Origin: Candidatus Omnitrophota bacterium
GTDB lineage: Bacteria > Omnitrophota > Omnitrophia > Omnitrophales > Aquincolibacteriaceae
Direction of reading: 5' to 3'
Assembly: GCA_022711115.1 (NCBI GenBank)
Contig: JAKLFP010000006.1
Location: forward strand, 86,214-150,213
DNA: 64,000 nt
Shown here one piece after another: positions 9,685-49,900 of this stretch; position 1 is the first letter of the stretch; each line of letters opens with the position of its first letter. A program made the position numbers and the translations under genes. The notes under the pieces are model-generated. The model saw nothing but the letters and a program-made list of their open reading frames with translations. It had not been told where the DNA came from and did not search any database.

Positions 9685-9726
9685 AAGACCTTCCCTGCAG
9701 CAGCTACCTTAAAGAATTAAAAAGAC

Positions 9727-10221: not shown

Positions 10222-10277
10222 AGCTTATGGCTCATAGCTTAGAGCTAGCCGCTAGGGGCTATAGTCTATGGTCTGAT

Positions 10278-20075: not shown

Positions 20076-20076
20076 T

Positions 20077-25992: not shown

Positions 25993-28900
25993 TTACGCGC
26001 TTCTTGCCATCGCGAACTGCGCTTGGACTTCCGTCACAAGCGTATTGATGCGGTCCCCAGCAAGGGTGAGGAAATTCTTGAGCATTTTAGGCATCACCAG
26101 CATCGTATCCGGCCATTGCGCTTTCAGGGCCACGGCCAAAGGTTCGCTCGCATAGGCCAATGGCTTGAGATTTAAAGATAAAATACCGGTACTGCGCAGA
26201 CGCGCGGCTTCTATATCCAGGAGTTTTCTCGCTTCATCCAGATGATCGGCTGGAAGGATCGGCGGCCGATGGGCTTGGGCAAGCTGGATATTGATTTTTT
26301 CAAGGAAGCCGCGGTCTGCGGCATTACGTACTAATACGATAACAGGCGTATCGCCGAAAATCGGACGGATAGCCGCGATCAAGCCATGATCCAGCGCAAG
26401 TTCAGGAGCAAGGATCAAGGCATCGGAGGTGGAAATTGTTTTAATCCCAAGGGCTTTAAGCGCTTGGGTGAAACGAACTTTGTCCAGAACCTGTTGAGCC
26501 TTTTGCACCATAGAATCCGGCAAAAGCGATATGGCAAGTTCCGCCGCGTTAAAGGCATAAGCCTGAAGCGAAACAAGGCCATCAGTCAGCTTTTCCGTTA
26601 CTCCTTCGAAACCTTGCAGGTTCCCGCCACCTATTTTTCTGTTTTCCCTGATCAGGTCTTCGATAGTTTTCACGGCAACACGCTCTGGCGTAAAAGTCGT
26701 CAAAGTAACCGTAGGAAGCGGAACAGACAAAGGAACATTTCCAACAACGGCTGCTGTCATGGTGGGTGTTACCGTATGAATCGCCATGGTTTGCCGCACT
26801 TCCGAACGTGACGCCTTTCCTTTGTCTGCCTGTAATTCAGAATGGATAGGTTTAAGATGTAAAATTTGCGCATGATCCCCATCCCTGACCGGTACGCGAT
26901 GTTTCCAACCCGAAAGCAAGTTATCGCGTTCTCCATAGTTTTCCCAGGTTAACATATCCACTACTTGGTAACGGACGCCCGGGTCGATCATTCTTTCAAG
27001 ACCGTTTGTAAGTGTTGTCGATACTTTCCCGTCACCGGCTAATTCACCCTCCTGAATGCCGAAAATAATCGAGGCAAAAACCATTTGCCCAGAATCACTT
27101 TTCCTTGCGAAAACAAGAGAACTCTGATTGGAAGGATCAAAAACTGTCCATTGATGTCCTTCAGCATCGGAAAGATTGTCTCCAAAAACAGCTTTGATCT
27201 CTGTGACTGCCTTCCGAAGTTTTGAGTAATATCCCGGGTTCCAATGTGCAACTTCGGATTTTTCTAGAAGTTCCGGTCTAAAAAGAGCTATCAGGGTCAT
27301 TAAGGGCTTTATGTTTTCTCCAAAGTAATGGGCCGCATCTTTAGCCGAAAAACTGGCCATGATCGCCAATTGTTCAAAAAAGTGGTCCGACCGTACAACA
27401 CCGTCTGTTAAAGTGTACCCTCTGCCTTTTTGGCGGACGAGTTGTTTCATAAGCGCCATCGCAGAGGTTTCACGGTTTCGGATCTTTTCCGCAATATTGG
27501 CAACTTCCGGCAACTCAATGGCCTCCCATTCTTGGACTTCCACAGCGATGGGCATCGAGATCGACGCAGGAACTTCCGAAGCGACTTCATCGCTATGTTG
27601 AATGGTGTGCTTTTTCTCGTATTTGGGGTCCGAGATTCGAACAAGAGGAACATTGCCCGTTTTTCCGACCAACCCGGCAAAGATAGCCGGATCGATGGCG
27701 ATGGAAGTCCGAGACTTGAAAAGTTTCCCCCCGCTCGAGGGGACTTCTTCTCTCACAGGAGCACCTGTATTAATATTCACCTGAAGCGGTTTTCCTCCTC
27801 GTGGAGTAAAAATGAAAGATTGGATCTCGGTGCGCCGGCTCTTTAGGGGTTTGGCGGCCGGATGACCTTCAAGGTAACGCACAATATAAACAGCCCAAGG
27901 CTGATATTTGGGACTGACGTTTTGCGTCAATTCTTTTCTTAGTTTATGGGCTTCCGCGGGAGAAGCTTGCATGTAACGTTCAAACCAATCACCCGCCATA
28001 CGAAGCAACAGTTCTTCTGTCAGATCCAAAGCTTCCAAATTAAGCCGGATTCTTGTCTTTTCATCTGCCGTTTCCGCTTCCGCGGCTAATTGTCCGATCC
28101 GTTTTTTAAAGGGCTCCAATCCTGAAGAAAATTTGGTGAGGACTTGCTCGCGTAAATATCTGAAGATATCATCGTAATAAACATGATGCCGTAAGCTGTT
28201 TAAGGCTTCAACGCCGCGCGAAGAAGGGCTTCCCGTGGGCTGCCATGTTTTGATTTCTCGAAATGAACGGAACATCCCGAAAAGCCCCAAGCCTTCAGCT
28301 GAATGTTTTCGGAATCTGCTTAAACCCTCCCACACAAAATCAGGCGCCTGCACAGGAACCGCATAATCGGAAAACTGATATTGAAGCTGGCTAAATAACG
28401 CTTCCCGCTCTTCATTTTCCTTGAGCATATTTTCAAACAAATAGGCGTGCCCCATGGCCTGTCCTGTCACCATATCCACACGCCAGGCGGCCGCTACGGA
28501 TTGATACATACGTTCACGGCGGGTCGCAGGATCTTTTCTTAATGCTTTGACTGTTTTCAAGGCTTCAAAGAGACTGCGGGCCGAAGGGCGCCTCCCCCCG
28601 CCTTCCTGGCTACTTTTCTCGCTATCGTCATAGGCTACAAAAACACCGCTCAAAATCTCCCAGTCACCGCTTCTTAAACGTTCCCTCAAAATGTCCTGAG
28701 TGATCACTTTGGTGTTCGGTTCCCCTTTTTCATTCAAGACATCGATCATCGCCCCTGTTTTTCTGTCGCGGATCACCCAAACCTCGGGGTTGCTTCCGGC
28801 AAAAGGTCCGACAACTTCGCCTCCGTTGGCCATGACTTTCATCATGCTCGTGGCGGAAGCTTCCAGATCTTCATCGGACAGCATAACTCCTGCTTGGGCT

Positions 28901-31900
28901 CCTCGAAAAATAATTTGCGCTTCGTAATAGGTGTAATCTTCGAGAGTGGCTATCCGGTCTTCCAATCCGAGAAGTTCCGTCATAAAACGTATATAAAGAA
29001 AACGGTCATGCGCGTCGTCTGCAAAAGTACGCCCGCCGATCAACAGGCGAGACATGGTACGCCGCAAAACTTCAACTGCCGGCTGGTTTTTAAGACGTTC
29101 CCGAAGCCCTTCAAAATCATTTTTATAGCGTCCATGATTTTGATCCCTTCCATCTCTATACGCTTTCCAAAAAAGAAAAAGTTGATCGAAAGGCCTTGCA
29201 AAAGGGCCGGAAAATTCCACTTTAAGCCCGGCTTGAGTCACCGCTTCTTCCACTCTTCGTTTGAGCGTTTCTTCGGCTTCTACGGCTGTCATGATAGGTT
29301 TTTTTATCTTTTGGGCGGCTTCGTCTGCGGCTTTGGCAGCGGTGTCTTTCAATCTTTCTTCATATTTATCCGGACCTTTATAAGGTACCTGGCGTCTGAC
29401 ATTCGATGAAATAGGATCGCCAAGAAGCAGATCGCGGGCTTTCCCATAATTTTGTTCAAGTGTCGCCCAGTTTTCTGGTCGGTTTTCTTGAATCGCTGTC
29501 GAAAAAAGTTCCTGCATTTCTCTTAAATGTCCCGCCAGCTGCGTGTCATCTAAATGGCGTTCCGTTTGATAATCTCTAAACGTGCTCCCAAGCCAGTCGC
29601 TCGCGCCTTTGAAACCGCGTTTTTCGCGGAGCCAGATCAGAAGCTGGGCTGCATCGGCCGCGCTGACCCATTCATTTTGAATCTTGAATTGTTCGCGCAG
29701 ATCCGAATGTTTTTCAAGCTCCTGGAAAAATTGCCGGTCGTTGGCTTCTGAAGGAAGTCCGTTTTCCGGTTTTGGGATCTGAAGTTCTTGCTTAAAACGT
29801 TCGATCAAAAGCCTTCTTGCCGGAGACTGCCAACGCGGCAGAAAAACACCGTTCGTACTTCGAATACCTTTAGAAGGATCATAAAAACCTTTGACGCGAT
29901 GCCATGCGGCGCGAAAAATATTTTTTAGAAGCGCCGGTAAGTGTTCCACAAGATTGACGCCGGAAATGAGATGAAAAACCTCTGCCGTAAACCCGGCAAT
30001 ATCGATCATACCGTCATGAACCAGCGTGGAGCGCAACCATTCGGGGAATCCCAAAAGCTCGTAGTGACCTTCCCAGGCTTCAAAAAGACCCGGACGAAAA
30101 ACCGTATGGTTCAGTGTCACTCGCTTCGCACTCTTGAGATGCCGCACCGGGAGGCTCACGAACACTTCATGGTCCAGAAGAATGATGTTCTGGGGATTGT
30201 TTTGATTTTCAAGGATTTGGATCAGACGTTCGCTCGCGGCGCTGAAGAAAGCCATATCAATTTCGCGATTACCCGTATCGTCGTAAACCTCCAAAAAGGC
30301 CGGCGCTTCTTCTTGTCCATTCGGACCTTTGACATAGGCGTCCAGATAATACTGCGGTGATTTGTGAAATTGAAAATAAGTTTTGTAAACCCGGAAAGAG
30401 ACCGTTCTGGGAACTCCTCTCACGGGAAGTGTGACCTCCAAGGCAATATCGGTAGGATCTAAAAACTTTTTGATGATCTGACCGAGAAGTTTCCGCTGAT
30501 GATGATCATAACCTTTGCCGGGCTTATTTTTGATGAAGTTCCAAAGCGGATGAATCCCGGTTACATTCATCCCGAGCGCAGCCCAGGCTTCAAAAAGGTC
30601 CGGCATCAAAGCTCCAAGGCCGCCTGTCAAAGTTGTTTGGGAAGCTTCCCCTGCAGTCCAAGCGCTCATCTCCGCAGCGATTTTTTCCAGAACAGGCATC
30701 GGAAGACCGCATTCGAATTGCCGGCTATAAATATGCTGTTTATGAACTCGGGGCGTATTAACTTCGACCCACTTTGGCACCTTTTGCTCCCGCAATTCTG
30801 AACGTGGAAAAGACGGGGTTATCCCGAGTGTTTTGAAATCAATATTGATCAGGCGGGGATGGCTTAAAAAATCCAACGCGACATCCCAGGATTTCAGCGC
30901 AAGACCCGCTGCGACAAGATTTAAAACGGTCCTGCGGTACAACTCAAAATCCGGACGGTCGACAAGCTCATAAGCTTCCATGCCCTCATAGAAAGATCCA
31001 TGGCCTGCAGCGGCAAGCTTTTGGATCCCTGCCAGGAAATGGGTCTTGGTGTTTTCTTCGAAAATCTTTTTTCTGACCCAAACGATTGTTTTCCCTCTCA
31101 CACCGTAATACCAGCTTGTCTTCATATCCACTTCGACAAATTCATCTGGCTCCGACGGCCGCTCATAGGTCACAAGCCACTGAAGCATACCGGCTAAATA
31201 GTTCGGAGTAATAACGGAATGGTCTATCAAGCTTCGCACCTCGGATCGCCGGTAACGAATGGTTACTTTGGAATTGTTGATCACGGTGTTTTCCCAACCG
31301 CGGGAAGAAGCAGTGACCGATTGGGTTCCCCAGCTTACGGAAACAAACCGGTATCTATTCATATCTGAAATGCCCGCAGCCCTGATTCCGTCAGCACCTT
31401 CAAAATGATTGTCAATGAATTGCCTCACGGTCAGTCCGCGCGGCACATTGATAAAATTGATTGCGATCAGATTTGAAGCGGGCGCAGAAGGTTTCGGCAT
31501 CTCTTGTTGTTTAGGCGCCGGCGGAAGTATTCCCATAATCTTCGCCGCCATTGCTTCCCCGGCAGCTTTCGCTTTTGTTTCATCCGCCACAGTTAAAGGT
31601 ATTTCTTTTTGAACTGGTTCGACGGGTGTTGTTTTTACCGTTGGCACAGACGGTGTATTCCGGGAAGATAGCGCGGCAGCTTCTTCGGTTTTGGACAAAG
31701 CTTGTATGACAAAATGGAGCTCATTCGTCCACGGGTGATCAGGTCGACGGTCTAAAATAGTAAGCGCTTGGATCCGATGGAGAGGATAATGCTCAGGCTG
31801 GTCTCGAAGCATACGGCGCACCGCTTCAGCAATACGTTCCGGAGCTTCGCCCATGCCCACATGATGCACAAGCTTGCGATTGCTATAGCTTGTATCCGTG

Positions 31901-34900
31901 GACGTTTCAAAACTAATCTCATCAATCCTCATCTTCACCTGGAACATAAGCCGATACACAGCATCCCGGACCTCAGAAGGCGTACGTGCAAACACCTCCA
32001 TAGACTTGGATTCTGCTAATGTTTCCGAAACCTTTTTTGGGCTAATTTTCTCTGAAACAGTCATCACGTCGATCTTCTGCCCGATTTGAAACTCGGGTTT
32101 AGGCGCGACAGTCGGTTGAAGTGTGAGCGTGATCTCGCCTTTGTTGTTCTCGGCAGTCAATAAGAACCATCCGTATATTTCTTGGTGGGATGGCACATTC
32201 GCGAAAAAGTCGTTGCCCGTATCGTTCCAAAATGCTGAGGATTGAATCCGGCGACCTGCGCTTTGATAAATAACTTCAATGGCGTGGTCCCGCGCGATAT
32301 TCCACCGATCACCGATTTGGCGCAATGCGTCGGAAATCCGGTCAAATGTCAGCGGTTCAGAGGTCCACGTGTCTTTAGACGGAGCATAAGAAACGCTTAC
32401 AATGCGGTTCGCGTTATAACCGGTTGAACCGGCTTTCTCTTGGATATAAAGCGTCCCGCCTATCAATGCCTCGAATTTTCCTTCGTAAACAGTTCCATCC
32501 TGCATGGAAAGCTTCAACATCGTCCCCAAAGCGACATTTCCCGCTTGAGCATCCGTTTTAAATTGCGCGAACGGGACTTTGGCAAGCAACGTTTCCGCTA
32601 TGTTTTTGGCCATCCCTTCCGGCTTTGGTTGCTCTTCACCGCGCACTTCCGAGCGTTTGGAATCCACATAGGTTAGTGAGGGAGAGAGACGATCATCGGC
32701 AAAATGCAGCCAAAAAATTTCGCCTTTCTGAATAAGAATATCTCGCCATTCCATCGGACGGCTATAAGCATAACGCTGGCCTTTGCTAGAAACCTCTGCA
32801 CCGACCAGGGCCTTATCACTGAGCGAACGAAGACGGATAAGAGATTCCATCAGATCCGCGAGAGACGATTTCTTTAACGCCTTGACTTTTATGAGTGCTT
32901 CCGAGCCATGGATTATCTGGACAGCCTGCTGCGAAGCGCTAAGCCCGGAACCCGGACTCACTAGGCTTCTCAATTCCGAGCGGGACTCGGCGATGAGGAA
33001 GGAATCGCCGGCTCCGGCAATTTCGAAAGTTTTCAAATCCGGATTCAGAAAAGAGCGCCGGAACGCTTCGCCCAAGGACATCCGTCCCGCACTATCCAAT
33101 TCAATAAAAATGGCCCTGCGATGAATTTGATCCATATAGTCTCTTGCCGCAACCGGATCTTGAGGCGTTGTTTGCTCAACCATTTGCTGCCATGCTGTCG
33201 AAGGATAAACCCGCAAGGCTTTGCCTGCCTTTTCCGATACAGCGATAAGTTGAGTCTCCTCTCCTAACATGGTTCGGAAAGGTGCGGGAAGTTGGATCCT
33301 ATTTTTATCATCCACCTTGAAGGTATAAGAGCTGGTGAAGATCACCGGCGCCCGCACTTCAGAGCGGGAAATCACGGGTAAGAGACCTTTATATTTAAGA
33401 TCAGGTCTTTGTATGCCAAGAGAAAAATTTGAACTGCCATCCGCGTACCGGATCACCCATGGTTTTTCGGTTTTGCTTTGGGCTTCCAGCAGTTCAGAAA
33501 GCGATGGTAACTTCACCGGTTGGCCGTTCTTGAACCATTCCAAAACTCGGTTTTGCTGCGACGTATAGCCCAATTTTTTTGCTAGGGTCTCGCGAAGCGC
33601 TTGGGAATCCATGAACTTCATGGGCCAAGGAGCTTTAAGATCAGGCGGGAACCTTGGATTGGTGCGAATCCCGTATACTTGTTTAATTTCACCATCCTGG
33701 GTGATAAAAATTGCCTGGAGAGGGAAACGGCCGTCAAAGCTGCTTCGTAATTGGTCACCGTCAAAAAACCTGGTTTTAAACCGGCCAAAGTGAACGGAAA
33801 TGTTTTTGGCGCCGGTCCGATAAACGAGTTCATGGTCAGGTCCAAGATAAAATCCTTCGAATTCCGGGCTTCTCGGGTCCTGCGTTCCGTTGAACGCGAC
33901 AACTCCCTGCTCAACCGGCTGCTGATACTTCTGCGCCAAATCGAACAGGATTTGTTCTCCTTCAAAATAAGTGACATACGGATCAAGCGCCTGCGCGAGG
34001 TCCCTGTCCCCGAAAAGATTGCCGACGATTTTGACCGTAACGGGTTGCACTGCCTTTGCCCCTTCCGCTTGAGCAAGGCTGATGATCTCGATGCTGTTCG
34101 GATCCTTCGCAGGTTTAAAATCCACGCCCTCGATCAAATAAAGTTTGTCGCGCCAGGCCTGAAGCTGGCTAATCAATTCATTGATAGTGATCTGCGGTCC
34201 GGTTAATGGTTTCAACGTAATCCTCGATTGCCCGATCTGTATCCACCTTGTCGGGCTCGTCACGGACCGGCTGTAAAGAACTTGGGTTTCCGGTAACGCA
34301 ATGGCCGGTTCGGGTTTCTGTTCAACGGGTTCTGTTTTCTTGACTTCTTCTACAGGGGCTTGCGCTGTCTGAACCGGGGTCTTGGGAGAAGCAAATCCCT
34401 GCCGTTGCTGAGCCGCTTTCTCACGGAGTTCTTGCTCTTTCTGAGCTACTTTTGACACCCTGACATCCCACTGCCCGCTACGGCGGGCGTCGTCTTTATT
34501 CATTCGCACTTCAGAGCGGGAGGTAAGCTCGACAATTTGGACGGTAAGTCTTTTCATTTTCTCTTCAGCGGAAGTATTGAGTAATCGATAGGCCGTAAAC
34601 GGTCCCGCAAGCATTTCCGTCACTTCTTGAAAGCCATATTGCCTGACCTTCGGAATAGCGTAATTGAATTCCACAACCGTGACAGTTTGAGAAGCGCTAT
34701 CGACTTTAGCGATCACTCTTTTCCATGAAATGGAGCCGAGATTGGAATTGTCGATGCGCCAATCCTTAGAGATCAACACGCTATTTTCTAAAGTATCGAA
34801 GTCCCCTGCCGAGGTTTGAGAAGTGATCCTGCCGCTTGCCGTATTATTTTCAAGGAGCTTCAGAAGATCGCCATACGGGATGAATCTAACTTCCCCTTCC

Positions 34901-37900
34901 GCTTGCGAAATAACAAGATAAGATTTGTATGCGTCGTGTTCTTGTTCTGCGACAAAAAAGCTAAGATCGCCTGTGGTTTCATCTTTTTGGAAGTCAAGGA
35001 TCCGTTTCCCGGCAAGGAATGTTTCGATTTCTTTTTGAAGTTCCGCGGCAGAACGCCCATTCGCGGCCTCAAATTCAACCTGCCGTTCACCTTGCTTCAC
35101 GATTAATTTTTGTCCGGATTGTTCAATGATAATTGCCGGCGGCGCTGAGTAAGGCCCACCCCACGGAATGCGTCCTTTTCGGGACAGGCTGCGTACTTCC
35201 GAGCGCAACGCAGGTTTTTCCTGCGGTAATTTTCCCAAAACCGCTCTGGCCGCATCATGAACAAGGCTTTTTCCTTTTTCATCAAGACGATTTCCTGAAA
35301 CAAGCTGCTGGACAACATTGGTCACACGGGCATTTACAAAATCGATGAGATCCTGGACCGTCAAACCTGAAAATTCATAATAGGCCGGTTTGCTTTTGGC
35401 CTGCAAGGCGGCTTCATCCGTTTTTGTGATTTCGATGCCGAATCTTTCTTCGAGAGACTGCATCAGACTCATTTCATCCAGGGAATCCATGCCGAGATCT
35501 TCTACTAACCGATCCGTCAGACGAATTTCTTCCTCGATCGCGGGAGGTAAAACCTCTTTTAAAATATCGATGACCTCTTGATCAATATTTTCACTCACCG
35601 TTCCCCGCATTTCCGAGCGACTGGCCTTTCTTCTTTCATTGATGGCGTGCTGAAAGGCATTCGAAAGTATTTTGTAGGGATTTTGCGAATAAAAATAATT
35701 TTGCCACAACCAATGCGCCAGACCTGAAATCCCGATAAAAATCATGCTAAACGCAACCACGCGGGGGATCTGTTCCTCCGCCGGCAAGAAGAATGTTGCC
35801 GTCCCGATAAGAGGAAATATAATCCCCACCAGGACCTTCATAAAAGCACTGCTCCGTCGGAATTGGAGTTCAGCAAGAAAAGAGGTGGGGTTACCGTTTT
35901 CCGCTTTTTTGTAATTGTCGGCATATCGGTTTTTCATTTTTTCCCACAATTGTTCTAAGCGGTCTAAGGTTATCCGGTTTTTACTATTTGATCGGAGATA
36001 TGCTCTGACCGATTCATCAAGAGAGCGCAATTCAGACCTTGCTTCCGTAAAGAGAACAGGATTGATTAAGTCATGGCTTAAATTAAGGGCATCATATTTC
36101 AAAGCTTTTTTTTGCTGTAAAAGTTGAATGCTTTTTGAAGGAATAGTTCGAAACTCAATACGATCAAACTCTGGGACTGTTTCTGTCCTGACGTTTTTGG
36201 TCGGTTTGATGCCCATGGAAGATATCCAGCCTTCAAAGGTTGTTTCCCCTGCTTCTTCCTGAAAGAAGTAAAAACGAAGTTTGAACGGCCCTTGAACAAT
36301 GTCCTCGGGTCCCAATTCGCGGGACCGGATGGTCCCGGCAGCCCCCGCTAACCATGAAAACCACACAAGATGGGAAAATTGTGTCCTTGGCAAATGTTCG
36401 TGGTGGGAATTATAAAGTTTATCGGGAAGTGCGAGATAGTGCTGTACCGCCTTACGGTTCTTAAACAACGTGATCATAAGACCTAAGGATCCTTGCTCAT
36501 CACCTTCAAAGTCATGGGCATCCAACCGAAGCTCCCGCTCCCATCCGATGCCTCCATTTCTCATATTCCAAACAAGCGGTTGGTGGACCAGATCCGACAG
36601 TTTGAATAAAGGTCCCTGAACAGCCCGTACTTCGGAACGAGTTTCCAGCTTCCTTGGCATAAAGAAATTTCCCGCATCGTCCTTCGAATCCCCCATAGAA
36701 AGCTGCTCGATGCCTTTAAAAACTTCGGCAAAAAACTTTTTTGCTTCGGCCTGTCTTATAGATTTTGAAGCGATAGAAAATTCCACTGTGATATCACGGC
36801 CATAGCTATTCAGCATCGCCTGCGTGTGATAGTTCAAGCCTAAAAGGGTCATCTCGTCCCACGACAAAAGATTAAATCTCTGTCCGTCGCTGCGAATAAT
36901 GGCTGCTTGAAAACTCTTGTCTTGAACAAGATATTTTCTTTCGAGAAGATGTTTGGTTCTGGCGGTAGGCGCCGTGTGAAGCCCGAGAGCGTTTCCGATG
37001 CTGTATTTCTTTGCCGCGATCCAGCGATCTCCTATTTTTGTCAGCTTAAAATCAGTTTTTCTTAATTCGGAGCGCTGATCGTTCATGTAATTCGGCTTGC
37101 GGGTCACCGGAAAAGCAGGCTCGGCGGTTTTTCGGGCATATGCAAGCAGGTATTTCTGCATTTTTTCGTATTTTGTACCGACGTTGATCGGGCCTTCGAT
37201 CCCACGGATGGGCTCCGTCAGTGTGAATCCCGCGGCCCGAAGAAGTGTTTCGAAATAACTCGGCGTGACAGTAAAGACCCAGCCATTGAGAAGTCGATCG
37301 CCGCTTAATTTTTGATTTTTAGGCTTGAAGATATTTCCCCCCGGGGCCCATCGGACAAAAAGAGGCGCGTCTTTTTCGAGAAGGTCCCTGAGCGAAAGTA
37401 ATGCGTTTAGCTGTTCTTCGGGCGAAAAATAAAGGAGCACATCGCTGATAAAAATCCCTCCGAAAGTTTTCCCGTTGAAATCAGCCGTTCGGAAATCGGC
37501 GGTCATGAACCTGTCTTTAGACATGTCCCCGAAAGAGGGATCTTCGAGAGCGGCTTTGATAAGCGACGGCGAGATGTCCGTTCCCCAAAGGTCGGTAAAT
37601 CCCTGTTCCTTAAATTTCTTGAGCGCCCTTCCGATGCCCATACCCACATCAAGAATGCTTTTATCCTTGCCGGCCATCAACGCCAGGAACTGATCGATCG
37701 TTTCTTGATGCGGAGAAACGTTCCAATCGCGGAGCTTATGGCGTTCAAAATCAAGGGAGAATTCATCATCCGTCCAGTACCGGACATTGCTGATCGCCGG
37801 GTCGGGGGGTGATTTTCTGAAGGTTTCTACCGCCGCCTGGAATTCCGGAGAAGTTTCCATCAGCGTTGCCAAAACCCGGGCAAATTCCGGATGATGTCTT

Positions 37901-40900
37901 ATCTCGGAACGTTTTGGGGAAGCTGGGACTGCGGAAGATACAGGCAGCAACGGTATGAGCGGCTCATAATAATGTGGCGCCGGATTGTAGTAAGAAGAAA
38001 CGTCTTCTGTTTCTTGTGCGCGTAATTCATTGCGCGGTGGAGCAATGTAGATACCGTCAAAAACAAGTTTGCCAACCAGATTGGTCCCGGCGTATTCTCT
38101 TTTTACAATAAAATCTATCTGGGCAATGCCACCATCTAAATACAGTATTGGCACCTCTACTATTTGATTTGCATATACCCTGGGAATGTCTCTCCCATCA
38201 CTTCCATGCAGTTGTATTCTAAACTGGCTGGGCACATTAATTGTTTCAGCGCCAACATGAAGTCTCAGTATAGTATTAGTCGGCCAACTTGCCAGTGATA
38301 CGTAATTAATTTTCGCCCATGCCCCTTCCCAGTTGCCTTGCCTAAAATCAAAATTAATTGTCCATTTACCCCCTGAGATACTTTCAGTCACTCCGCTCCA
38401 AAGAATGCCATGACTGGTAACTAACGGGATCAGGGATATGTTTCCTGAGGCACTAAAAAATTCCTTCTCGAGCTCTGTGGAATTCAAAGGGCGGGTAAAG
38501 GATGCGTCTCCGTTTTTGCCGGGAACATTCGTAAGGACTGCGGAGGATCCCGTAAAATTAGCCGGATAAGTTCGTATGTCATAAGCGTTGTAATTGGTGG
38601 GGCCGGTAATATTCATCGTGACTTGATTTGTCGCAGGTCCTTTTCTGATCGACATCAGTATATTCGTCATCTGTGCCAGCGCGCTTTGCGCCTGAAGTCC
38701 GAGCACGAGCAGGCCGGTTATGACAAGTTTTGAGATCGCGCTCATCCGTACTTCAGAGCGGCCGGCGTTATTGTTGTCGTTCAGTATCTCCAGTAGTTTT
38801 AGAATGTTTGGCTGAAGAATATCTTCTGTTGAAACATACTTCCGAAGAATGGTTTCGACTTGAGCAACCCGTAAGGTCCTTTGAGCCGCTAAATCCCGTA
38901 TATCTCCGTAAAGAACACTTGCAACGCCCCCCAACCCAAAAGCAATAAGGAATGCTACTGCGCCAAATCCGAAAAGACCGATGCTCCCTATTCCTAAAGC
39001 CAACGCGAAAAGCTTATGACGTTTTAATTGGGATTCTGTTTTAAAGGAAAGCTCATTCATCCAAAACGTATATAAAACGGCTATCTGGGCAAAATCAACC
39101 TGCGCCTCCTCACCCTCCATTTGAGCCCATTTGTATATACTTTCCGCGATCTTATTCCATTCTTCTTCTTGATAAATCGTAAGCCGTTGTTTTACCCATT
39201 GAAGATCGACTTTCTCAATTGGTTTACGGGAAGCCGCCATAGATAGAATGTCATCAATAGCGCGCAAGGAATAAGGATGCGAAATTCTTCCTTTTTTGAT
39301 TGATTCGTTTAAAAAATTGATCCCCTTAAAAACTTCGGTTCTTCTTTCATCTATGAGAGGGGAAACTTCACCTGCAGGGAATGCCTCTCCACGCACCTCG
39401 GAACGTTTTTGAGAAACAGGAACTGTGGCAGGCATGAGTGATAGCCGATGACCGCTCCGGTTATAAATCACTCCATTGAGTGTTAGTGTTTGATCGTCAT
39501 TAAAATGGACGCTCTCAAGAGGAGCCTCTAAGGTTGCCCATTGGATTCCTAAATTGGGATAAGGATTGAACATGTCTATCAGATGGATCCCCGCCAAGTA
39601 ATTAGTCATACCTCCGGCGCGGACCCATTCTCCCCAAACTACCACCTTGCCATCCGGCGAAACATCCCAAACATTAGGAACCAATCCGCGATCTTCCGCT
39701 GAATCATGTAACTTAAACGTTCTCCAGGTATGCGAGCGCGGGTTTCGAAGATCAACCATTTGAAGCGTTTGAATGCCAGAGGGTAAACCTGGACCTACTT
39801 GCACCCATGTTCTAAGCTCAAAATCAGGATTGGAAGTAGCCCGGATAAAAGGTGTTGGCGAATATTGAATCAGTGGAAAAACCTGATCTGTTTTGACACG
39901 ATAAAAAGCCTCAGCCCAGTAAGGCGTCATATTCACTACGGTTTGGGTTGCTCCCACAATGCCGGCCTGTGCCGTGAACCAAGTCCCGGAAGCAAGATTG
40001 GTCGAGATCTGAACCCAGTAAGTACGGTTGGTGGAACTTTTAAAACCCATGCCCATGACTGAACCATTTTTTACAAAAGAAATTATTTCGACCAGATTCG
40101 TCATCTGTGCCAGCGCGCTTTGAGCCTGAAGTCCGAGCACAAGAAATCCAAGCAAGGCAATCTTGGAAATCGTCTTGGCGCGCATTTCGGAACGTGTCTT
40201 TGAATGATAAGTTCCGGGCAAATGATAAGTACCGGGTAATAGCTTTATATAAGTTTGCTGCCCCGGAGAAATAAAAGCCAGTTTCTCATCAAGTTTCGCC
40301 GTCACATCCACTATGTTTTCTTGCAAATTCCATGATGAGATAGCCTTAACAGTAAACAAAGGCCCTTCAGATTTCCAGGAGGGCGCACTCATCATCACAA
40401 ATCCCATCGCACTAAACGCTTCTATCGCATCCTTTTCGAATTCAGCCCTGGAATACGAACGGGCCGTCCGCGCCTCGGAACGCCGGATTCCGTTGCGGTC
40501 ATACGTCCTGTTGCCATTCAGAGTGATGGTTCCGTTTTCATTGAAGCGGATTGATTGCAACGGATCCGGAAGATCAAGAAAGATTCTTTGCTTGGTAGCT
40601 GGTTTATAAAAAACAGCACGATTGCCTAAGATTCCATAGACAACAATGACTCCATCCTGGGAAACATCCCATGGGAAAGCTGAAATACGCGCATAGTAAG
40701 CGTCATCAGAAATGATTGTCCATGTTCGATTACGCAAATTCATCATGTCAAAAAAGATATCCCATGATGTTCCCCCTGTCGTCCGCGGATCAATTCGAAA
40801 AGCGAAATCAGGGTTGGATGGGGCTCGGGTCCAACTAACAATAGATCCGGGTGATGAAGGCACAGCATACAAAGAACCGGCTTGTATTTTAAGAAACCCT

Positions 40901-43900
40901 TTCCCGGTAAAAGATCCGAACAACTGAACAGATGTTTGTGGGGTGCTAATGAAACCCGCCCAGGCAAAATTCCATGTGGGATTTGCCGTAAGATTCGTTG
41001 CAGTTAAAACGCGATGTGCGATATTGGTCCCGAAATTCGTTTCGCTGAGAAATCGTAGCCAAAGATTTGTCGGCGAGTAAGCAAACGAAGTGATCACCGG
41101 CGGGTTTATCTGCGGGATTGCGGGATACCCGATAGCACGGAAAAATCTCTGGCTTGGATTTAGAGCCAATCGATTTAAATAGAGGGCGACAGAATCCACA
41201 TAAGATTCTCGGCCGTAACCGCTGCCCATTACGTCAACTGACGTAACCGTATCGCCTTCCGCAAGTCCGAGCTCCTGAACCGTAAAAGTTCGGGTCACCC
41301 ACTGATTCTGCGGAACTAAAACAAAATTGGTATTGCTGGCTGAATTTTCATCATGCCTGTAATTAAAGTACCTGGCTACCTGATAGGCCGAGCCGTTGTT
41401 TCTCAAGCCATTCAATCGGAAATAAACTGGCGCTTCCCTCCCCGAACCGTCTCCAGTAAGTGGGGCTGAAACAATTTTGAAAGTTATATCAAATCGGCTG
41501 AAATTACTCAGCGTAATCGGTGTGTTATATTCCTGCATCATAAAACGGCCTTCACCGTAATCGGGAGGACGTGACAGGCTAACAACTCCTGTGCGTCCAT
41601 CGTAAGAAGAAAAATATCTGGGAACAGTTTCCGCATTAGTCGAATATGGGACCCAACTGTCTGGCAGGCTATTGGTAGATGATCTTTGAAGAAAATCCCC
41701 ATTGACGACCCCATCAACCACATCCGACGGAACCGTAAAGGTATAAGAAGCTGAACCATTCGTTGCCGCAACATTGGCAAAATGAAGAAAATTTGTGGCT
41801 GTCCCGTTGAAAAGCCGCTCAGCGCTTTGGATCTCATAGGTTTTGTTGGTCGCCGGCCCCGTGATGCCCAGCGTGAATTGATTGGTCGCAGGCCCTTTTC
41901 TGATCGACATCAATATGTTCTGCGCCCATCCTCCGACAGAGGACAGCATCAGGCCAATAAGAGCGGTAATCGCTAATTTGCCCCGCACTTCGGAGCGAGG
42001 TGCGACCGGAGCTGCGGAAGAAGTAGGCGGAGATTCTATTAGCGGCTCATAATAATGCGGCGTCGGGTTGTAGTAAGAAGAAACGTCTTCCGTTCCTTGT
42101 GCGCGCAATTCGTTGCGGCGTGGTGCGACATAGATGCCATCAAACACAATCCTCCCGACCATGTTGGTTCCCGCGTCTCTTTTGTCCAGAACAAAAGCAA
42201 GCTCGTTATGCGCAGTTGGCTTAAGCGGCAACTCTATAATCTGTCCCGCTTGTGGATTATGAACCCCTAGAATTTGCGTATTGGGCTTAAATTCGATTTT
42301 GATATAGGTCGGCAGATTTGTCGTACCGGCGCCAAAATGCAGCCTCAAAACCCTGTCGGCGGGAATGTACATTATATCTCCATACTTCAATCTCCCCCAC
42401 GCGCCGACTAAGCTGCTAATGTTAAAATCAAAGTCGATTGTCCATTTTTTGTCCGCTGAAATTCTCTCGACCACACCTGTCCAAATGATGCCATGGTAAT
42501 AAAATAACGGAATCCACGAGACATTCCCTACGGCACTAAAAAATTCGTGGTCTAATTGGCTCGAATTTAAAGGATGGACATAGGAGGCAATTCCACCCGT
42601 TGCGCGAATATTTGTTAAAACCATGGGTGAGCCTACGAAATTAGGGGGATAAGTTCGCAGATCATAAGCATTGTAACTTTTAGGACCAGTAATGTTCATC
42701 GTGACTTGATTTGTCGCAGGTCCTTTTCTGATCGACATCAAGATATTCGTCGCCTGCGCTAGCGCGCTTTGAACTTGAAGCCCGAGCGCAAGCAGTCCGG
42801 CCATGGCGAGTTTCGAAACCACTCCAACCCGCACTTCGAAGCGGGCGAAAGAAGTGATGAGTTGGCGGACTTCCCTGTGAACGGCAGGAGCCCCTAAAAG
42901 AGCTGAGAGGTTAAAGCGCGGAGAATTGACTTTTTTAAGATTGATATTGTCAAAACGCATCGGAAAGATTGGATCACCGTTCTCAAGAGTCGCTTCTCCA
43001 CCGGCCTTCAAGACCAGAAACGCTCCCTGAACAATATCCCAGATTGACGGAGTGGGTTTCATGTAAAAGATCTCAGGGTCTCCTTGGTTATAAACACCGC
43101 TTGAAATGACGCGCCCGATATTGATAAACCCGGATTCTCCTTTATTGAAGATCACTGAACGAGCCGCCGCCTGAACGGCCGCATAGTAAGGCGCCGGAGA
43201 AACTCCGGCTTTATCGGATTGATAAATAGCAACCCTGGCATTTGCAAGGGTACCGGCTGCAGGATCGATCCAAACGGGTTTTCCGTTCAATAAAACTCCG
43301 GGCCGATCCCGGGTGGCGGTCCACATCGAGCTGCCTGTTCCGTCAACATCGTATTCGGGAGCAAAAATAACTGAAAGGACCGGCATGCCGTCTTCAAGCA
43401 GAAGAAGCGCGGTATCATAGCCTTTCTTTTTTGTCTCATAAGCTTTAGTGCCATCAATAGGGTCCACGATCCAGACATGCTTCGCTTTCTTGGCATTCTC
43501 GATCAGCTGCCTGTTCGCTTCCAGATCGGCATCGTCCTGAGAAAAATTTTCTTCACCGAGGACCACAGAATCAGGCACGATCCTGGGAAGTTCAAGATTG
43601 AAGAGATTCTGAATGTCTCGATCAGCCTTTGTTTGCCCTGAGTTGTCACTTTTGACGACGCGATCCAGATCGGAAGACTGAAGGGCTTTTCGCATAATTT
43701 CACCGGCTTGTCTGGCTAGGCTTTCAACTTCACTCAGCGCTTTTTGAACTTCGCCCGGTGTTAAATCCCGCATTTCGGAACGAGATTTTGGTTTTCCGAG
43801 ACGGACGAAAAATTTATGATCCATGTGACCAATGGCGGTTGTCCGTGCTACCGGACGATCTCGATAAGTCTCATCGATCTTGTGCACCCGCAAACCTTTG

Positions 43901-46900
43901 GGAGCTTCCACGCTCAAGTTTGCCGTTTGAAGATCCGCCACTTGCCGCAAAGAAATCTTAACAACACCTTTTCCTGTCTCGATTACAAGCGGTTGGGACA
44001 ACGAAACCTCAAAAATTTGTCCGGCCAAAATCGCCACACCGCCTTTTGTGATCATCGAACCGTCCTTGATTAAAGGAATGGAAACCATCATCCTTTGCTG
44101 TTGTGAAGACAATGTATCGATCTGGACCCGGAAGATCCCGGGGCCGAAAACAAGTTTATGCCCGCGGGAAACGCGCATTGTCTCTGTGGTAAGGATAGTG
44201 GGCTTTTCCGGATTTCGCATTTCCGAACGATGCTTTTTTTCAATTCCTATTTCAGCATACAAAGGCTGCCCTGTGTCCTGGACTTTATGAAGATGAACAA
44301 TAATATCACCGACGGAAATGCTTTCTCCGGCAATCCGTCTGCCCTCTTGGATTACTTGGCCCTCCTTTAAAATTTGCAAAAAAGCGGCAGGCAGACTATC
44401 CCAACCATAACGACCGGGATAAGCTTCAACATCTACGGTCAAAGATAATCCATGGTCTAATTCGATAGTTTGCTGATCTTCAACACGTTTTAAGGATAGT
44501 TCTATTTCATTCGACACTTCAAGTTTTTGTCTTTGGGGACGGTTTTTATAAAGTTCTTTTATTCCTATCACGATCATCCCTAAGATCGCAGCCGGTGCAA
44601 CAATCCTGGCCAGAACAACCAGGGAATTGACCCAATCGATATCCATCCGCAATTCCGAGCGACGAAAATGAGGCGCTTCGTCCATTTCCGGGGCCAAAAG
44701 ATCTTGAGTTTGCTCCACCGCGGCCCTGACAACCGACATTTCATCAAGATAGCGGCGATAAGCGCGCGTGGTCACGGGATCGGCCGGCGATTCCTCGGAC
44801 AAAGATTCGATTTTCTTTTCCAGACCCTGAAGCCAGCTCGCCCATGCCGCAGAAGCCGCGTAGAGCCATCCCAGAGTTCTTACAAGATTTTCGACGTTTT
44901 CCGGTTTTGCGTTTTGACGGTCCGACAGAAGCCGTTCGGCCGCAGGATTGAATTTACGAACCAACGGATCCCGGATCTGGCTAAGCATGCTCGGTTGGTC
45001 CAGCCGGTTATCCTGGAGATGCCTTCCGATCTCTGTCTTGATCCTCACAGGGTCCGTGGAAGGATTCCCGTTGTGCGGCGCGAGCGCAAATAAAGCGTTG
45101 GAAACTTCTCGGAGCGCGGACAAAGCGTCGGCGTGAACCTGTTCCGGTAACAATTTATTTTGATAAATCTCTTCCAGACTCAACAGCCTGTCCATAAGAG
45201 ACGCGGTATTTGAACCGATAAAATCAAGCCCTTCCTCTCCGGCTACCGCCTCTTGTCCTTCTTTTTCAAGAAAACGCTGCGCTTCCCGTCTGCTCTGAAA
45301 GATCAAGGCCGTTTCATTTTCAATCCGCAACTCCGAGTGAGGCGTTTGGGAAGCCGTGTCCCCGCCCGTAAGCGAGAACAACCGCCCGCGCAACACCTCG
45401 AGCCGGCTCGATAAAACCTTCCGGCTACGTTCCAAATTTATCCGTTCTTGTAAAGAGGTTGCTTGGCGAAACTTTACAGCAAAAGATTTTGAGCTGGATT
45501 CCAAATTGGCGATCCTCAAACGAATCTCTTGTTCGTCAACTGGAATCCCCGGATCCGGATCTTCGGCACGCGCCTCCGACCGGGAGATCTTAGTCATGTC
45601 CGGAATATTCCCGAGCAGCTCTCCGACAGCACGGGCTATGCGAACCCGGGAATTGTTGGGATCATCACCGAAATTCCCGGCATTGCTCTGCACTATTCCG
45701 ATCAAGTCAGAGACAACTTCCGCTTGTTTACGGACAGCCTCGGGAAATCCTTCCGTGGAAATCACGTCGAACAGCCCGCCTTTATTTTCCGTAATAGCCA
45801 GGAAAAGTTCCTTCAGCTTTTCACGATCCCCTTTGAAATTTTCCTTGATGCCGGTCATGTCGGGATTAACGCTCCGGACCAAAAGCCTCAAAAGGATCTC
45901 GGCCTTGATTTCAGAAGTCAATGTCCGGTTGCTCATAATATCGTTCAGGACTTTTGCCCGCCGCTCCGCCTCAGAAAAACCCGTCATGGATTCAGGCAAT
46001 GATTCTCCGAGATTCAGAGCCTTGGATTTTTGTTCCTGCGCGTGAAACTCATAGGCCGAGGCCACGATCAGATCCAACCCACGCTGTGCCCGCCAAGCCA
46101 GTTTCCGCGTCGCCAATTCACTGCTGGCACGAAGAACATCCGGATCGCCCTGCCGGCGCGGACCGTAATCCACCACTAATTTGCCGCGCTCTGCCGCGGG
46201 AAGCACTTTCCTGAAACTTTCAACGATCTGATTATTGGAGGTTGGGGTTCCTGTCCCTAAGGTAAAGACTTCGCCTACTTTTTTATTCTCTGTCTTGGCT
46301 TGATAAGACAGTGACAAAGATTTCATAATCGCGTGACCAATGTCCAGAACATGGATATAATCCCGGATATTGGTGCCATCGGGCGTCTGATAATCTTTCC
46401 CAAAGATCTGGAACGGAACCTTTTCTTTTCCGTAAAGGAAATATTTGATGAGCCTCGGGATGAGGTGCGTCTCCGGACCGATATGCCCTTCCCCGACCCA
46501 CTCTCCGATCTCCTCCCAGTAAAACGCTCCTGCCAGATTGAAAAAACGCAGCGCCGCGAAATTAACGCCCTGCGCTTGATAGGCCTGCATCAGGCGTTCC
46601 ATCAGATATTTGGTCTCTCCGTAAGGGTTCATCGGTTTTGCCGGGATCTTTTCATCAAGCAATCCGTATTTATTGAAATTCTTTCCTTCAAAAACACCAG
46701 CGCTCGAGGCGAACGCCAGGGGGATCCCCAGTTCCTTCGCGACTTCTTCCACATCCAGCGTACCAACCACATTATTGTCAAAGTACGTCGCCGGAAAATT
46801 TCCGGAGACCCCAGCGGCAATGTAAGCCGCCAAATGAACAATGCTGTCCGCGTGATGTTCCATCGCGACCTGCTTCAAAAGATCGCGGCTTGCGATATTT

Positions 46901-49900
46901 CCTTCCACCACTGAAACTCTTCCAGGGTAGGCCGCCTGGACCTTCCGCAGATAGGCCTTCCGCTTGGGTGTGAGCATGTTGTCAAAAAGGACGACCCTGG
47001 ACCCGTTGGAAAGCGCTTCATACATGACCCCTGAGGCTACATAACCAAAACCTCCCGTGATCAAGACGGTCTTTCCTTCATGGATTTTAGGATCCACATT
47101 CGGAGCCACCGGGCTTTCGATCATGGATTTCTGCCAATTTAAAAAGTAGAGACGCTCGTCATCTTTAGGAAGGATCTCAAGTTCCCAGTTCTCTTTGATC
47201 AAAATTCCGCCGAGCTCATAAGATTTCTTGGAAGCCAGAAAGGCCGCGATCTTTTCAGGGATCCCTTTTTCCCGAAGTTTGCGTCCCAATTCTTCAGAAG
47301 ACATGTAAAAAGCTTCCTGGGCCGCGATCTCGACAGCGATATGATCGTCTTGCGTCACCTCCACGCCTCCGATGCTGCCAAGACTGGCCTGAAGACGTTT
47401 TTTCCAGTAATGAGACTGCGCCAGATACGAAGTAGCGACCGTTTCCACCACGGCTACGGCATCGGGCTTTTTGATCGGTTCGAAAGTATCTTCGCGCGTC
47501 AGCCCGACCAGAGGAGATTCCGGTCTGCGGGGCCTGTCATCGCTCGCACGTTCTAATTTTTTGACAGTTCTTGTATTCCCCTCGAAATCCACCTGCGGTT
47601 TGGTGTCAAGCCGCCACGGCGTTCGGCTGGACGCTTTGAGACTTTTTCTCCACAACACGCGAAAACTCGGGTCCCCCCACAGCACTGTGTCCTTAATGGC
47701 GTCCGTGGCGTTCCCGTAGCCGATATGGCGCCACTGCCCGTCGGAGGTTTTGATCTGGTTCCCAAGCCGGTCATCGCGATTATTTTTCTTCACAACACCC
47801 AATGCGATATGGGCTCGGTCATCCTGATTGCCGGGATTCCATGTCATTTGCCCGTAGCCGATCAATCGCTCATCCGCGATGGGGTTCAGCTGATTGTCCA
47901 CATTAAGGTACTGGACCACTTCAACGCCGAAGGAATCGAGAAAAGCGTTCACATCCTCCCGGAGAAGAACATCATCAAACGTATCCCCATGACCGGTTCC
48001 CCCTGTCGCGATCTCGCCGTTCTTGTTCAGAAAAGGCATTCCTGTTTTCGCGTCAAAAAGCGGCATCACGCCCTGTTGGGCGATAAAGATCCGGTCTTTC
48101 ATCCCGAACCACTGATTTTCCTCAAAGAACTGTATCGTTTTTTCATGGGTGATATCGCTTGTCATGATGATGACGGGAAAAGACGCGTCGTGACCGTAAT
48201 ATTTTGCTGCGGCCTGGATCTTCTTGATGATCCCGGCATAAAGCGGGAGCTGGCTCAAGGGTGTTCCGGGCAAAAATCCCTTGGGGTCAGGGCTCTTAAA
48301 CTCAGACCCCGAACCTCCGGCCGCCAGGACAAGCGCAAATCTTGATTTCCCGGGCATCGCCGGATCCGCCCGCAAAACTTTTTCCCGGGCCAGACGCTTT
48401 GCGGCGGCATCCTCCGCTGCTCCCGGTTCATGAACAGGAACGGTGAACGTTTCCGGAACTTCCGGCTTCGGCACTCCCGGCATCACAATCGTGTCCCGGA
48501 GTCGCTTGGCCTCTCTCCACAGAATTGTTTTAATCTGTCCGAGTATTTTTTTCTGCTGCTTTTCGCTTAAGGAATCCCACGGCGCCAGCAGGTGCTCCCA
48601 GCCGACTTCCTTGAGGCTTTTCATGGCCCAGGATGGGATTTCCGCGGCAACGCGTACTTCGGAACGTTTCTGCGAACCGCTTGCCGGAACAATCCCGCTA
48701 AGAATATCTTTTTCCCCCGCCGTCAGAACGGCATACGCTTGCGCGTGTTGTTCCGCAATGTCTCGCAAAACTTCTTCAGCGTAGTCTTCATCATCAACTT
48801 CCGGATCAAGACTTTGCATGACTTCTTTAAGAACGCTGGCGAATACTCTCGTGTTGAATTTCCCGTCGGCAAAAGTCTTCGGCAAAAGTTTCCCTTCCGC
48901 CAATTCCTCGGGAGAAAGGTCAAGTTTGGAGATCGCCTTTGCCGCGGCCTCTTCCATAACATGTAGTTTCAGGTCTTTCAGTGTCGGCACATCACGCAGC
49001 GCCCTGAAAATGGCCGGAAAACTGTAGCTGTTGTTCAAGGTGCTTCCCTGCGGGTATCCAAAAGCGCCTGTTGCGATAAAACGGATGTTCGGCATTTTTT
49101 TGAGTTCTGCCGGGTCCGCTTCGGGAGTCGGGTTCGAGCCCATAAAAGCACTGGCCTGGTCCTTCATGCCAGAAAAGATCGATTCCTTGCCCCACAAAAA
49201 CCCAGGCTCGGATAATCCTATAAAAGCATCCGCCCCTTGCAGTCCTTCCGCCAAACGCCCCTGATCGATCAAAGAAAGGACTATTTGGTTAATCTCGGGC
49301 ATAAGATCGCCGTATTTTTCGCTGAGAAATCCCGCGATGTTCTCCGGCAAACGGCCTTGTTTCTGCAGGGCCTCCATCGCGGCCAATCTTTCTGCCGCGG
49401 CATGGGCAACATGCTTTTTATCTCCTCCCTGCTCGACTTCGGCTAAAGCCAGTTCATGGGCCTTCGCAACCGAAAACTCCAGGCTTCCTTTAAATCCCTG
49501 AATGTTCAAAGCCGCCAGGTCATTTTTATGCTCTTCAAAGATTCCTTTTCGGCCCGAATAAAGAGGGCCCTTGGTGTCGTATACGATAATATTGCCACCC
49601 CCTGTTTTATCCATACCGAAACCGAGACGTTTCAGGAGAAGTGCTGTCGCGGTGGCAGAGGCCCCGGCGCCGGCGATCACCACTTTCATTTTAGAAATAT
49701 CACGGTTGGTTTCTTTCGCGGCCCGTAGAAGAGCTCCCGCAAAAACCATCGCGGTCCCGTGCTGATCGTCATGAATGGTCGTGATCCCTGTTTCGTTCAG
49801 TTCTCTTTCCAGCGGAAAACAGACCGGCGACCCGATATCCTCCAGCATCACCACAACCTCAAGTCCTTCCTCCTCGCGAACCTTGGTGACATAAGCCTGG

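Follow-up and report, generated by a model that had tools for sequence, protein, structure and literature searches.

A giant Omnitrophota open reading frame with repeated RSExR junctions: a candidate cellular polyprotein

Giant open reading frames (ORFs) occupy much of the small Omnitrophota genomes. What they do is acknowledged to be an open question, and Seymour et al. (2023) present them as poorly understood. Preprints describe them as very long and tiled by Pfam domains that are unrelated to one another, among them methyltransferase, sugar-metabolism and starch-synthase-like ones, and post-translational cleavage has been suggested for them, with C39 or S8 peptidase domains. One report, by West-Roberts et al. 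(2023), distinguishes Archaeovorin and Dockerin types and suggests cleavage, stating that the cleavage points are unknown (10.1101/2023.11.21.568195). Another, by Nielsen and Lui (2026), defines a 'multi-enzyme metabolic cluster' class with members of up to 147,155 aa (10.64898/2026.06.07.730766); a term search of it gave no mention of cleavage, motifs or polyproteins. Term searches of the two preprints, which were not aimed at a TIKI-like leader, its divergent paralogue or module exchange, likewise gave no mention of a junction motif. Here we analyse a 64,000-nucleotide stretch of a Candidatus Omnitrophota genome (GCA_022711115.1, contig JAKLFP010000006.1, positions 86,214 to 150,213; hereafter the window), which holds an ORF of 11,695 aa. 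This giant is likewise very long and tiled by unrelated domains; profile scans found neither a C39 nor an S8 domain in it. A pentapeptide, RSExR, divides it into modules behind an N-terminal leader domain. From its sequence, we regard proteolytic release of the modules from a cellular polyprotein as the best-supported reading, and as a reasonably probable one.

The closest described systems share some of these features. MARTX of Vibrio is a very large modular bacterial protein whose modules are released by an in-chain protease acting at inter-module sites (PMC6254334). MARTX carries three to five toxin effectors destined for eukaryotic cells, whereas the giant has about 37 modules, many of housekeeping type, and a strict pentapeptide junction. 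One MARTX effector, RRSP, belongs to the fold family predicted for the leader described here and has the same catalytic motif; within MARTX it is cargo and not the processor. That processor is a cysteine protease domain activated by inositol hexakisphosphate, and it cuts after Leu. Viral polyproteins (picornavirus 3C, potyvirus NIa) also concatenate complete proteins, with a lineage-specific boundary motif and an in-chain protease. Unlike them, the giant is a chromosomal gene lying among those for SOD, DHFR, ThyA and transketolase, it has several times more modules, and its candidate protease is of another fold. To our knowledge, the polyprotein strategy is otherwise tied to viruses, save for a few toxins and adhesins. 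Literature searches for RSEVR in this sense, or for Omnitroph* together with 'polyprotein', found nothing relevant, and the combination of a leader with a predicted TIKI-like fold, lineage-specific junctions and exchangeable modules is not described in the literature searched.

The giant ORF, its junctions and its modules

The giant spans about 35 kb and, when cut at its motif sites, falls into about 37 modules of 76-1,327 aa each. Its main features, by position in the window, are the following.

25993..61080, reverse strand: giant ORF, a single stop-free frame; 11,695 aa, with about 37 junction-delimited modules, M01-M37
59203..61080, reverse strand: M01, the leader, aa 1-626; a hydrophobic signal or anchor segment and a TIKI/TraB/ChaN/Ere/RRSP-like domain (predicted), followed by the first RSEVR
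52252-54705, reverse strand: M06; glutamate dehydrogenase plus a C-terminal extension of ~330 aa with a P-loop-like GxxxxGK, no internal junction
45568-48651, reverse strand: M13; a UDP-sugar pyrophosphorylase-like part plus an NAD-dependent epimerase, no internal junction
37897..42828, reverse strand: M19-M24 region; M19, M20, M22 and M24 are paralogous, each with a signal peptide after the junction, and M21 and M23 are interspersed
25996..26793, reverse strand: M37, the C-terminal module, 266 aa

A search for [RH]SExR returned 34 matches in the giant, 33 of them RSExR and one HSELR. The composition of the protein predicts 0.23 copies of RSExR, no more than 2 appeared in any of 1000 shuffles, and the 11,635 aa of the window's other ORFs contain 0. 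The x residue of the giant's junctions is V (20), M (7), L (5), I (2) or A (2), and degenerate copies such as RAEVR and RFEVR occur as well. In a junction logo, five residues are conserved and the upstream context is not. On account of this pattern, neither cleavage of the chain by itself at the Ser nor a 2A-like skipping peptide was retained as an explanation. The junctions separate complete enzymes, small proteins, membrane proteins and secreted proteins with signal peptides of their own. Domain profiles identify the enzyme modules as glutamate dehydrogenase, malic enzyme, UDP-sugar pyrophosphorylase plus epimerase, inositol monophosphatase, a methyltransferase and a phosphorylase/glycosyltransferase-like protein. 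The paralogues M19, M20, M22 and M24 share, besides the signal peptide, a 'ILMSIRKGPATNQ' motif, and the junction before M19 is the degenerate RFEVR.

The leader was used to scan species-representative genomes; 154 places matched, and the best 80 were kept as loci (L numbers). Among these best 80 of the 154, every taxon-labelled locus belongs to Candidatus Omnitrophota, and the remainder carry the label 'uncultured bacterium'. The same architecture, a leader of ~600 aa followed by junction-separated cargo, recurs in dozens of Omnitrophota species. With few exceptions, the leader stands at the head of a very long ORF in the kept loci, and most leader-headed ORFs of at least 1,500 aa repeat a motif at module-like spacing. 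This motif is mostly RSExR, with RAExR (L024, L028), RPE[SA][RK] (L007), LSD[SAT]R (L030) and A[ASQ]SLG (L067, L069, L084) as variants, which tend to group with leader clades in a rough neighbour-joining tree. All junction-rich ORFs whose 5' end falls inside the locus begin with the leader; those apparently devoid of it seem to continue another ORF beyond a frameshift or a gap in the assembly. At two loci (L037, ~13078-13213; L072, ~10415-10512) a junction-rich ORF takes over in another frame where the leader-headed one ends, the two overlapping by ~100-135 nt. These frame changes are probably frameshift errors in metagenome-assembled genomes; programmed frameshifting is the alternative.

When the 37 modules were compared by phmmer with the other polyproteins, the same modules were found at other positions and still flanked by junctions. 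MraZ-like modules are present in L012, L016 (two copies) and L025, and the methyltransferase module recurs in L014. The halves of M13 occur apart, the pyrophosphorylase in L024 and the epimerase in L023. M36, a 1,332-aa phosphorylase/starch-synthase-like module, recurs in L005, L008, L012, L014, L016, L022 and L025 (a list that covers M36/M37), and M37 also ends the polyproteins of L005, L014, L016 and L025. This arrangement suggests that the leader at one end and M36-M37 (25996-30789, reverse strand) at the other form a conserved frame around variable cargo.

Small proteins that are normally free recur among this cargo. A census of 90 small junction-bounded modules of other species yielded five with a Pfam match, namely two MraZ, two response-regulator receivers and one CsrA. 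The CsrA module, at aa 698-821 of the leader-headed ORF of L028, is full-length (PF02599, 78.6 bits, profile positions 1-52 of 53) and starts with its own Met directly after RAEVR; the next module too starts with Met after RAEVR. The theme of small, normally free proteins as junction-delimited modules holds beyond the window. A database protein homologous to M28 (P0014) begins 'VRGEDL...', the gene caller having apparently started at the GTG of the junction Val, and public databases probably contain fragments of such polyproteins mis-called as small proteins.

The ACP, MraZ-like and M26 modules

An initial annotation, made from the letters of the window, had drawn attention to the span 32983-37059 (aa 8008-9366 of the giant), in which it recognized an acyl carrier protein (ACP), an HPr-like protein and an MraZ-like protein as embedded modules. 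The span is organized as follows.

37060..37074, reverse strand: junction RSELR, aa 8003-8007; upstream boundary of the span
36640..37059, reverse strand: M26, the 'HPr-like' module, 140 aa, with GLHTAPTA; an orphan of unproven HPr homology
36625..36639, reverse strand: junction RSEVR, aa 8148-8152
35605..35619, reverse strand: junction RSEMR, aa 8488-8492
35206..35604, reverse strand: M29, the ACP module, 133 aa; codon of the DSL Ser at 35482-35484
35191..35205, reverse strand: junction RSEVR, aa 8626-8630
33352..33366, reverse strand: junction RSEVR, aa 9239-9243
32983..33351, reverse strand: M32, the MraZ-like module, 123 aa, with DDKNR and DSAGR; PF02381
32968..32982, reverse strand: junction RSELR, aa 9367-9371; downstream boundary of the span

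The description of the three modules was accurate as to their boundaries (RSELR, RSEVR or RSEMR), their lengths of 140, 133 and 123 aa, and their motifs: GLHTAPTA lies at aa 8033-8040, DLGMDSLD at aa 8528-8535 with the Ser codon in the place given, and the two D-x-x-x-R half-repeats at aa 9257 (DDKNR) and aa 9329 (DSAGR). Two of the three assignments were borne out by the profiles proposed for them. The ACP module matches PF00550 with 33.5 bits (cut-off 20.8) and the MraZ-like module matches PF02381 with 46.9 bits (cut-off 23). The usual partners are missing, as had been noticed: across the giant and the window there is no ketosynthase, acyltransferase, condensation or adenylation (KS/AT/C/A) domain, no EI/EII domain of the phosphotransferase system (PTS), and no mraW/rsmH or other dcw gene. 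A homologue search with aa 8008-9371, together with a scan of metagenome contigs, found no orthologue of the region as a whole.

The PF00550 match of M29 covers module residues 9-62 and thus begins 9 residues after R5, the last Arg of the junction. The ACP core (aa 8497-8585) has an 11-residue insertion before helix IV and is followed by a tail of ~45 aa. Free ACPs of 77-87 aa match this core at 35-50% identity in a HMMER search of 1.84 billion representative proteins, and an alignment with residues 20-76 of E. coli AcpP gives 39% identity and places the Ser on Ser36. M29 nevertheless stays below equivalog level, with 37.9 bits against a cut-off of 70.45 for TIGR00517, and it scores below the cut-off of all other ACP equivalog models. 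Profile scans of the window's proteins found no phosphopantetheinyl transferase domain.

M32 likewise scores 38.8 bits against the TIGR00242 cut-off of 98.35. It aligns collinearly with E. coli MraZ over both halves. In all five Omnitrophota MraZ-like modules the collinear alignment begins at residue 1 of the E. coli protein, 1-4 residues past the last junction Arg. The first D-x-x-x-R motif is present in 5/5 modules and the second in 4/5, L025 reading EAGR at this place. In L016, at aa ~850-1140 of the leader-headed ORF, two MraZ-like modules stand in tandem with a decayed junction (...FKAGET...) between them; evidently, two such modules can survive in fused form. M29 thus shares with free AcpP the PP-binding domain and the DSL Ser, and M32 shares with free MraZ the two half-repeats; they differ from the free proteins in being embedded in frame and in standing apart from the usual gene neighbours. 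Because their scores reach about half or less of the equivalog cut-offs, both modules are divergent paralogues and not canonical AcpP and MraZ. Equating them with acpP or mraZ function from such scores is not justified.

The HPr identity of M26 fared differently. Neither the module nor its core matches PF00381, the profile that the initial annotation had itself put forward, or TIGR01003 at E<=10. A phmmer search of PDB sequences gave no match, and no homologue was found among the 1.84 billion representatives or in a word-indexed search of 5.8 billion sequences. A low-confidence predicted structure of M26 gave no HPr fold. The resemblance of M26 to free HPr amounts to a GLHT.P string and a pairwise alignment that is collinear but weak. 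Against E. coli HPr it scores 26.6 bits, with His15 and Ser46 aligned and z ~6.7 relative to shuffles, and is the best-scoring segment of the whole giant against that protein. Its GLHTAP is aligned with GLHTRP, Ala standing in place of Arg17. With B. subtilis HPr the E. coli result was not reproduced, as the alignment reached 16.9 bits and 64/2000 shuffles scored as well. On these comparisons, the HPr assignment of M26 is unproven.

Proposed release of the modules and the candidate protease

If the giant is a polyprotein, the whole chain would be translated as one polypeptide, and an endopeptidase would then sever it at every junction, either at the final Arg or immediately behind it. Each module would gain a near-native N-terminus, and the junction would stay on the C-terminus of the preceding module. 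The cutter would be the leader, M01, acting in cis, or a divergently encoded 725-aa paralogue acting in trans. That cleavage happens, where, and by which enzyme, we infer from the following observations.

For MraZ, ACP and CsrA, the native N-terminus follows the motif at a distance of 0-5 residues. Sec-type signal peptides or transmembrane segments follow immediately after 25/381 junctions, compared with 47/1930 random positions, and several of these signal peptides have classical AxA-type ends, such as ...AKAQ followed by T. M11 and M16 contain single, strongly hydrophobic segments that separate glutamate dehydrogenase, the malic enzyme and UDP-sugar enzymes, and inositol monophosphatase from one another. 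In an uncut chain, these segments would set at least one group of cofactor-dependent enzymes on the wrong side of the membrane. Taken with the native N-termini and the post-junction signal peptides, this topology favours cutting at or just after R5.

For the leader, AlphaFold2 returned a model with pLDDT 76.7 and pTM 0.71, whose predicted core is the parallel beta-sheet fold common to the TIKI/TraB/Ere/ChaN/RRSP superfamily. Across 69 leader domains H84, Q90, E112, G185, E187, R475 and GG(F)H503 are invariant. The pattern [D/E]82-x-H84, E112 and H503 corresponds to the 2His/2Glu motif of that superfamily, an equivalence drawn from the sequence pattern and not from superposition. In RRSP, a site-specific endopeptidase, the motif consists of E3900, H3902, E3930 and H4030 (PMC6254334). 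The His-to-Glu spacing of 28 residues is the same in the leader, in RRSP (H3902/E3930) and in Bcr135 (H85/E113). The leader thus keeps the [D/E]xH...E...H pattern of the TIKI/TraB-PrgY/Ere/ChaN/RRSP superfamily with its spacing; it differs from the known members in lacking a profile match, in a helical insertion of ~300 residues that splits the core, and in heading the putative polyproteins. Tiki is a protease, and the fold family also holds the esterases (Ere) and the haem-binding ChaN. The paralogue lies beside the giant.

61396..63573, forward strand: 725-aa stand-alone paralogue of M01; divergently transcribed from the giant; phmmer 6.6e-14 to M01, with DxH...E...GGFH conserved

A homologue of this protein adjoins a polyprotein gene in 27 other loci. 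The paralogue also has a further C-terminal ~250 aa. M01 is the best protease candidate because it heads every 5'-complete junction-bearing ORF and combines a hydrolase-like predicted fold with an intact 2His/2Glu motif. We put forward the leader in cis, or the 725-aa paralogue in trans, as the processing enzyme tentatively, as a candidate somewhat short of likely. The window's M24-family peptidase and gamma-glutamyltranspeptidase were also considered as processors and rejected, since they are not conserved beside polyprotein genes.

The same features of the leader could point to a different role for the chain, that of a secreted or injected, MARTX-like multi-effector that is processed outside the producer or in a host or prey and whose modules reprogramme the victim. 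The leader starts with a signal-like segment, it shares its fold family with RRSP of MARTX and with HopBA1, a type III effector, and Omnitrophota have been proposed to be predators or parasites, their giant proteins being implicated in host interaction. However, the cargo is housekeeping-like (glutamate dehydrogenase, malic enzyme, inositol monophosphatase, ACP) and not toxin-like, modules with their own Sec signals fit release in the producer's cytoplasm better, and the window holds no secretion-system genes or RTX-type repeats. We consider such an effector improbable.

Several points weigh against release in the producing cell. Signal peptides are enriched to a modest degree, and the four examples from the window (M19, M20, M22, M24) are paralogues. 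M01 has no Pfam match at E<=0.01 and no NCBIfam match at E<=0.1, and in a fold family that includes esterases and ChaN, the predicted fold alone does not imply protease activity. The leader and its paralogues start with a Sec-signal-like segment, which would put the domain outside the cytoplasm, and much of the cargo is of cytoplasmic type. M06 and M13 are junction-less multi-enzyme fusions, and fusion as such is therefore tolerated. Cleavage, its products and their neo-termini are predictions drawn from the sequence. Some of these points would suit a chain that is never cut and acts as a membrane-anchored mega-enzyme or scaffold, with RSExR as a linker feature for docking, chaperone binding or modification of Ser or Arg. 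It is in this way, as membrane-anchored cytoplasmic assemblies, that Omnitrophota multi-enzyme giants are read by Nielsen and Lui (10.64898/2026.06.07.730766). A passive linker, however, needs no four invariant residues and would not switch its motif coherently across a lineage. Signal peptides, MraZ and CsrA with native N-termini, and odd numbers of transmembrane segments between cytoplasmic-type enzymes fit one chain poorly. ACP domains do work in megasynthases; here the ACP has no adjoining partner enzymes. Overall, we think it unlikely that the chain remains uncut.

The initial annotation had argued for release on the ground that the small proteins could hardly function inside the chain. 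For ACP and HPr this was overstated, since carrier domains function within megasynthases and some fused PTS proteins contain an HPr domain. Better arguments come from MraZ, which is oligomeric, and from the CsrA of L028. The proposal of release itself agrees with the motif, the N-termini, the signal peptides, the topology and the exchange of modules, cleavage being the step that is predicted and not observed.

The codons of the junctions also bear on the nature of the motif. Over 264 junctions the synonymous codons vary, and Ser and Arg are kept despite switches of codon class (31 AGY for Ser; 15 AGR at R1, the first Arg). Since both residues survive such changes, selection acts on the peptide. 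Other features of codon usage are not what a signal acting on the peptide alone would predict, and they belong among the points that weigh against release. R1 is CGY in 77% and Ser is TCN in 88% of junctions (34/34 in the window). In the x codon, 75% of third bases are purines, compared with 42% for the same residues before other Arg codons, and ATA makes up 50% of the Ile codons at x as opposed to 10% in the control. R5 codons are unbiased. Such a bias suggests shared descent of the junctions or a constraint at the nucleotide level. Descent from a CGY-TCN-GAR-GTG-CGN ancestor that spread with the modules could explain it; a single mutation leads from GTG to M, L or A at x, and from TCN to P or A at position 2.

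A constraint at the nucleotide level could mean that the conserved element is mainly a nucleic-acid signal, for in-frame cassette recombination or RNA processing, with the peptide as a by-product. The junction-specific synonymous bias (CGY-TCN-GAR-NNG) and the exchange of modules exactly at junctions would agree with this. However, there is much degeneracy in the 15-nt consensus, Ser and Arg persist through the codon-class changes, and the bias is explicable by the descent just described. If the RNA were cut at sites with neither a stop nor a start codon, the pieces would be non-stop and could not be initiated, only 34% of x codons being NTG. Scans with Rfam at gathering thresholds and for tRNAs returned nothing in the window, and no repeat-like RNA element was reported there. 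We regard a primarily nucleic-acid function of the element as very improbable. Internal translation starts at the x codon were rejected as well: NTG accounts for no more than that 34% of x codons, and position +1 after the junction shows no enrichment of Met.

Extended from this window to the phylum, the polyprotein reading becomes more doubtful, and we offer it as a possibility: that in Omnitrophota, as in RNA viruses, a considerable fraction of the everyday proteins (enzymes, carriers, MraZ, CsrA) is made as polyproteins, here chromosomally encoded and of 3,000 to >10,000 residues, that a TIKI-family leader protease cuts these after a lineage-specific pentapeptide, and that the codon-level conservation left at the junctions reflects modules moving as in-frame cassettes together with their cleavage site. 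If true, a cellular organism would use polyprotein processing as a general expression strategy for housekeeping proteins. Published work suspected cleavage without naming sites; a defined junction with lineage variants makes the question testable. Any giant can be split in silico at its junctions for annotation and structure prediction, the four invariant catalytic-type residues of the candidate protease can be mutated, and the predicted neo-termini can be searched for in existing metaproteomes. A PRIDE dataset, PXD025008 (V. archaeovorus), is named in PMC12583861. Metabolic reconstructions that ignore the modules of giants would miss ACP, MraZ, CsrA, glutamate dehydrogenase and malic enzyme.

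Other genes of the window

Besides the giant, the window contains the beginning of a second gene of the same kind.

1..6942, reverse strand: second polyprotein gene, at least 2,314 aa; an M01-type leader, then RSEIR, RAEVR, RSEVR and RSELR; runs off the window

The remaining genes are of ordinary chromosomal kinds and encode SOD, two DHFR, ThyA, an ABC transporter, a split transketolase, gamma-glutamyltranspeptidase and MqnA. The two DHFR genes are in tandem and adjoin thyA, and the N- and C-terminal halves of transketolase are encoded by separate genes; these two arrangements lie at 9193-11072 and 19131-20895, both on the reverse strand. The genome thus also keeps some enzymes in ordinary small genes.

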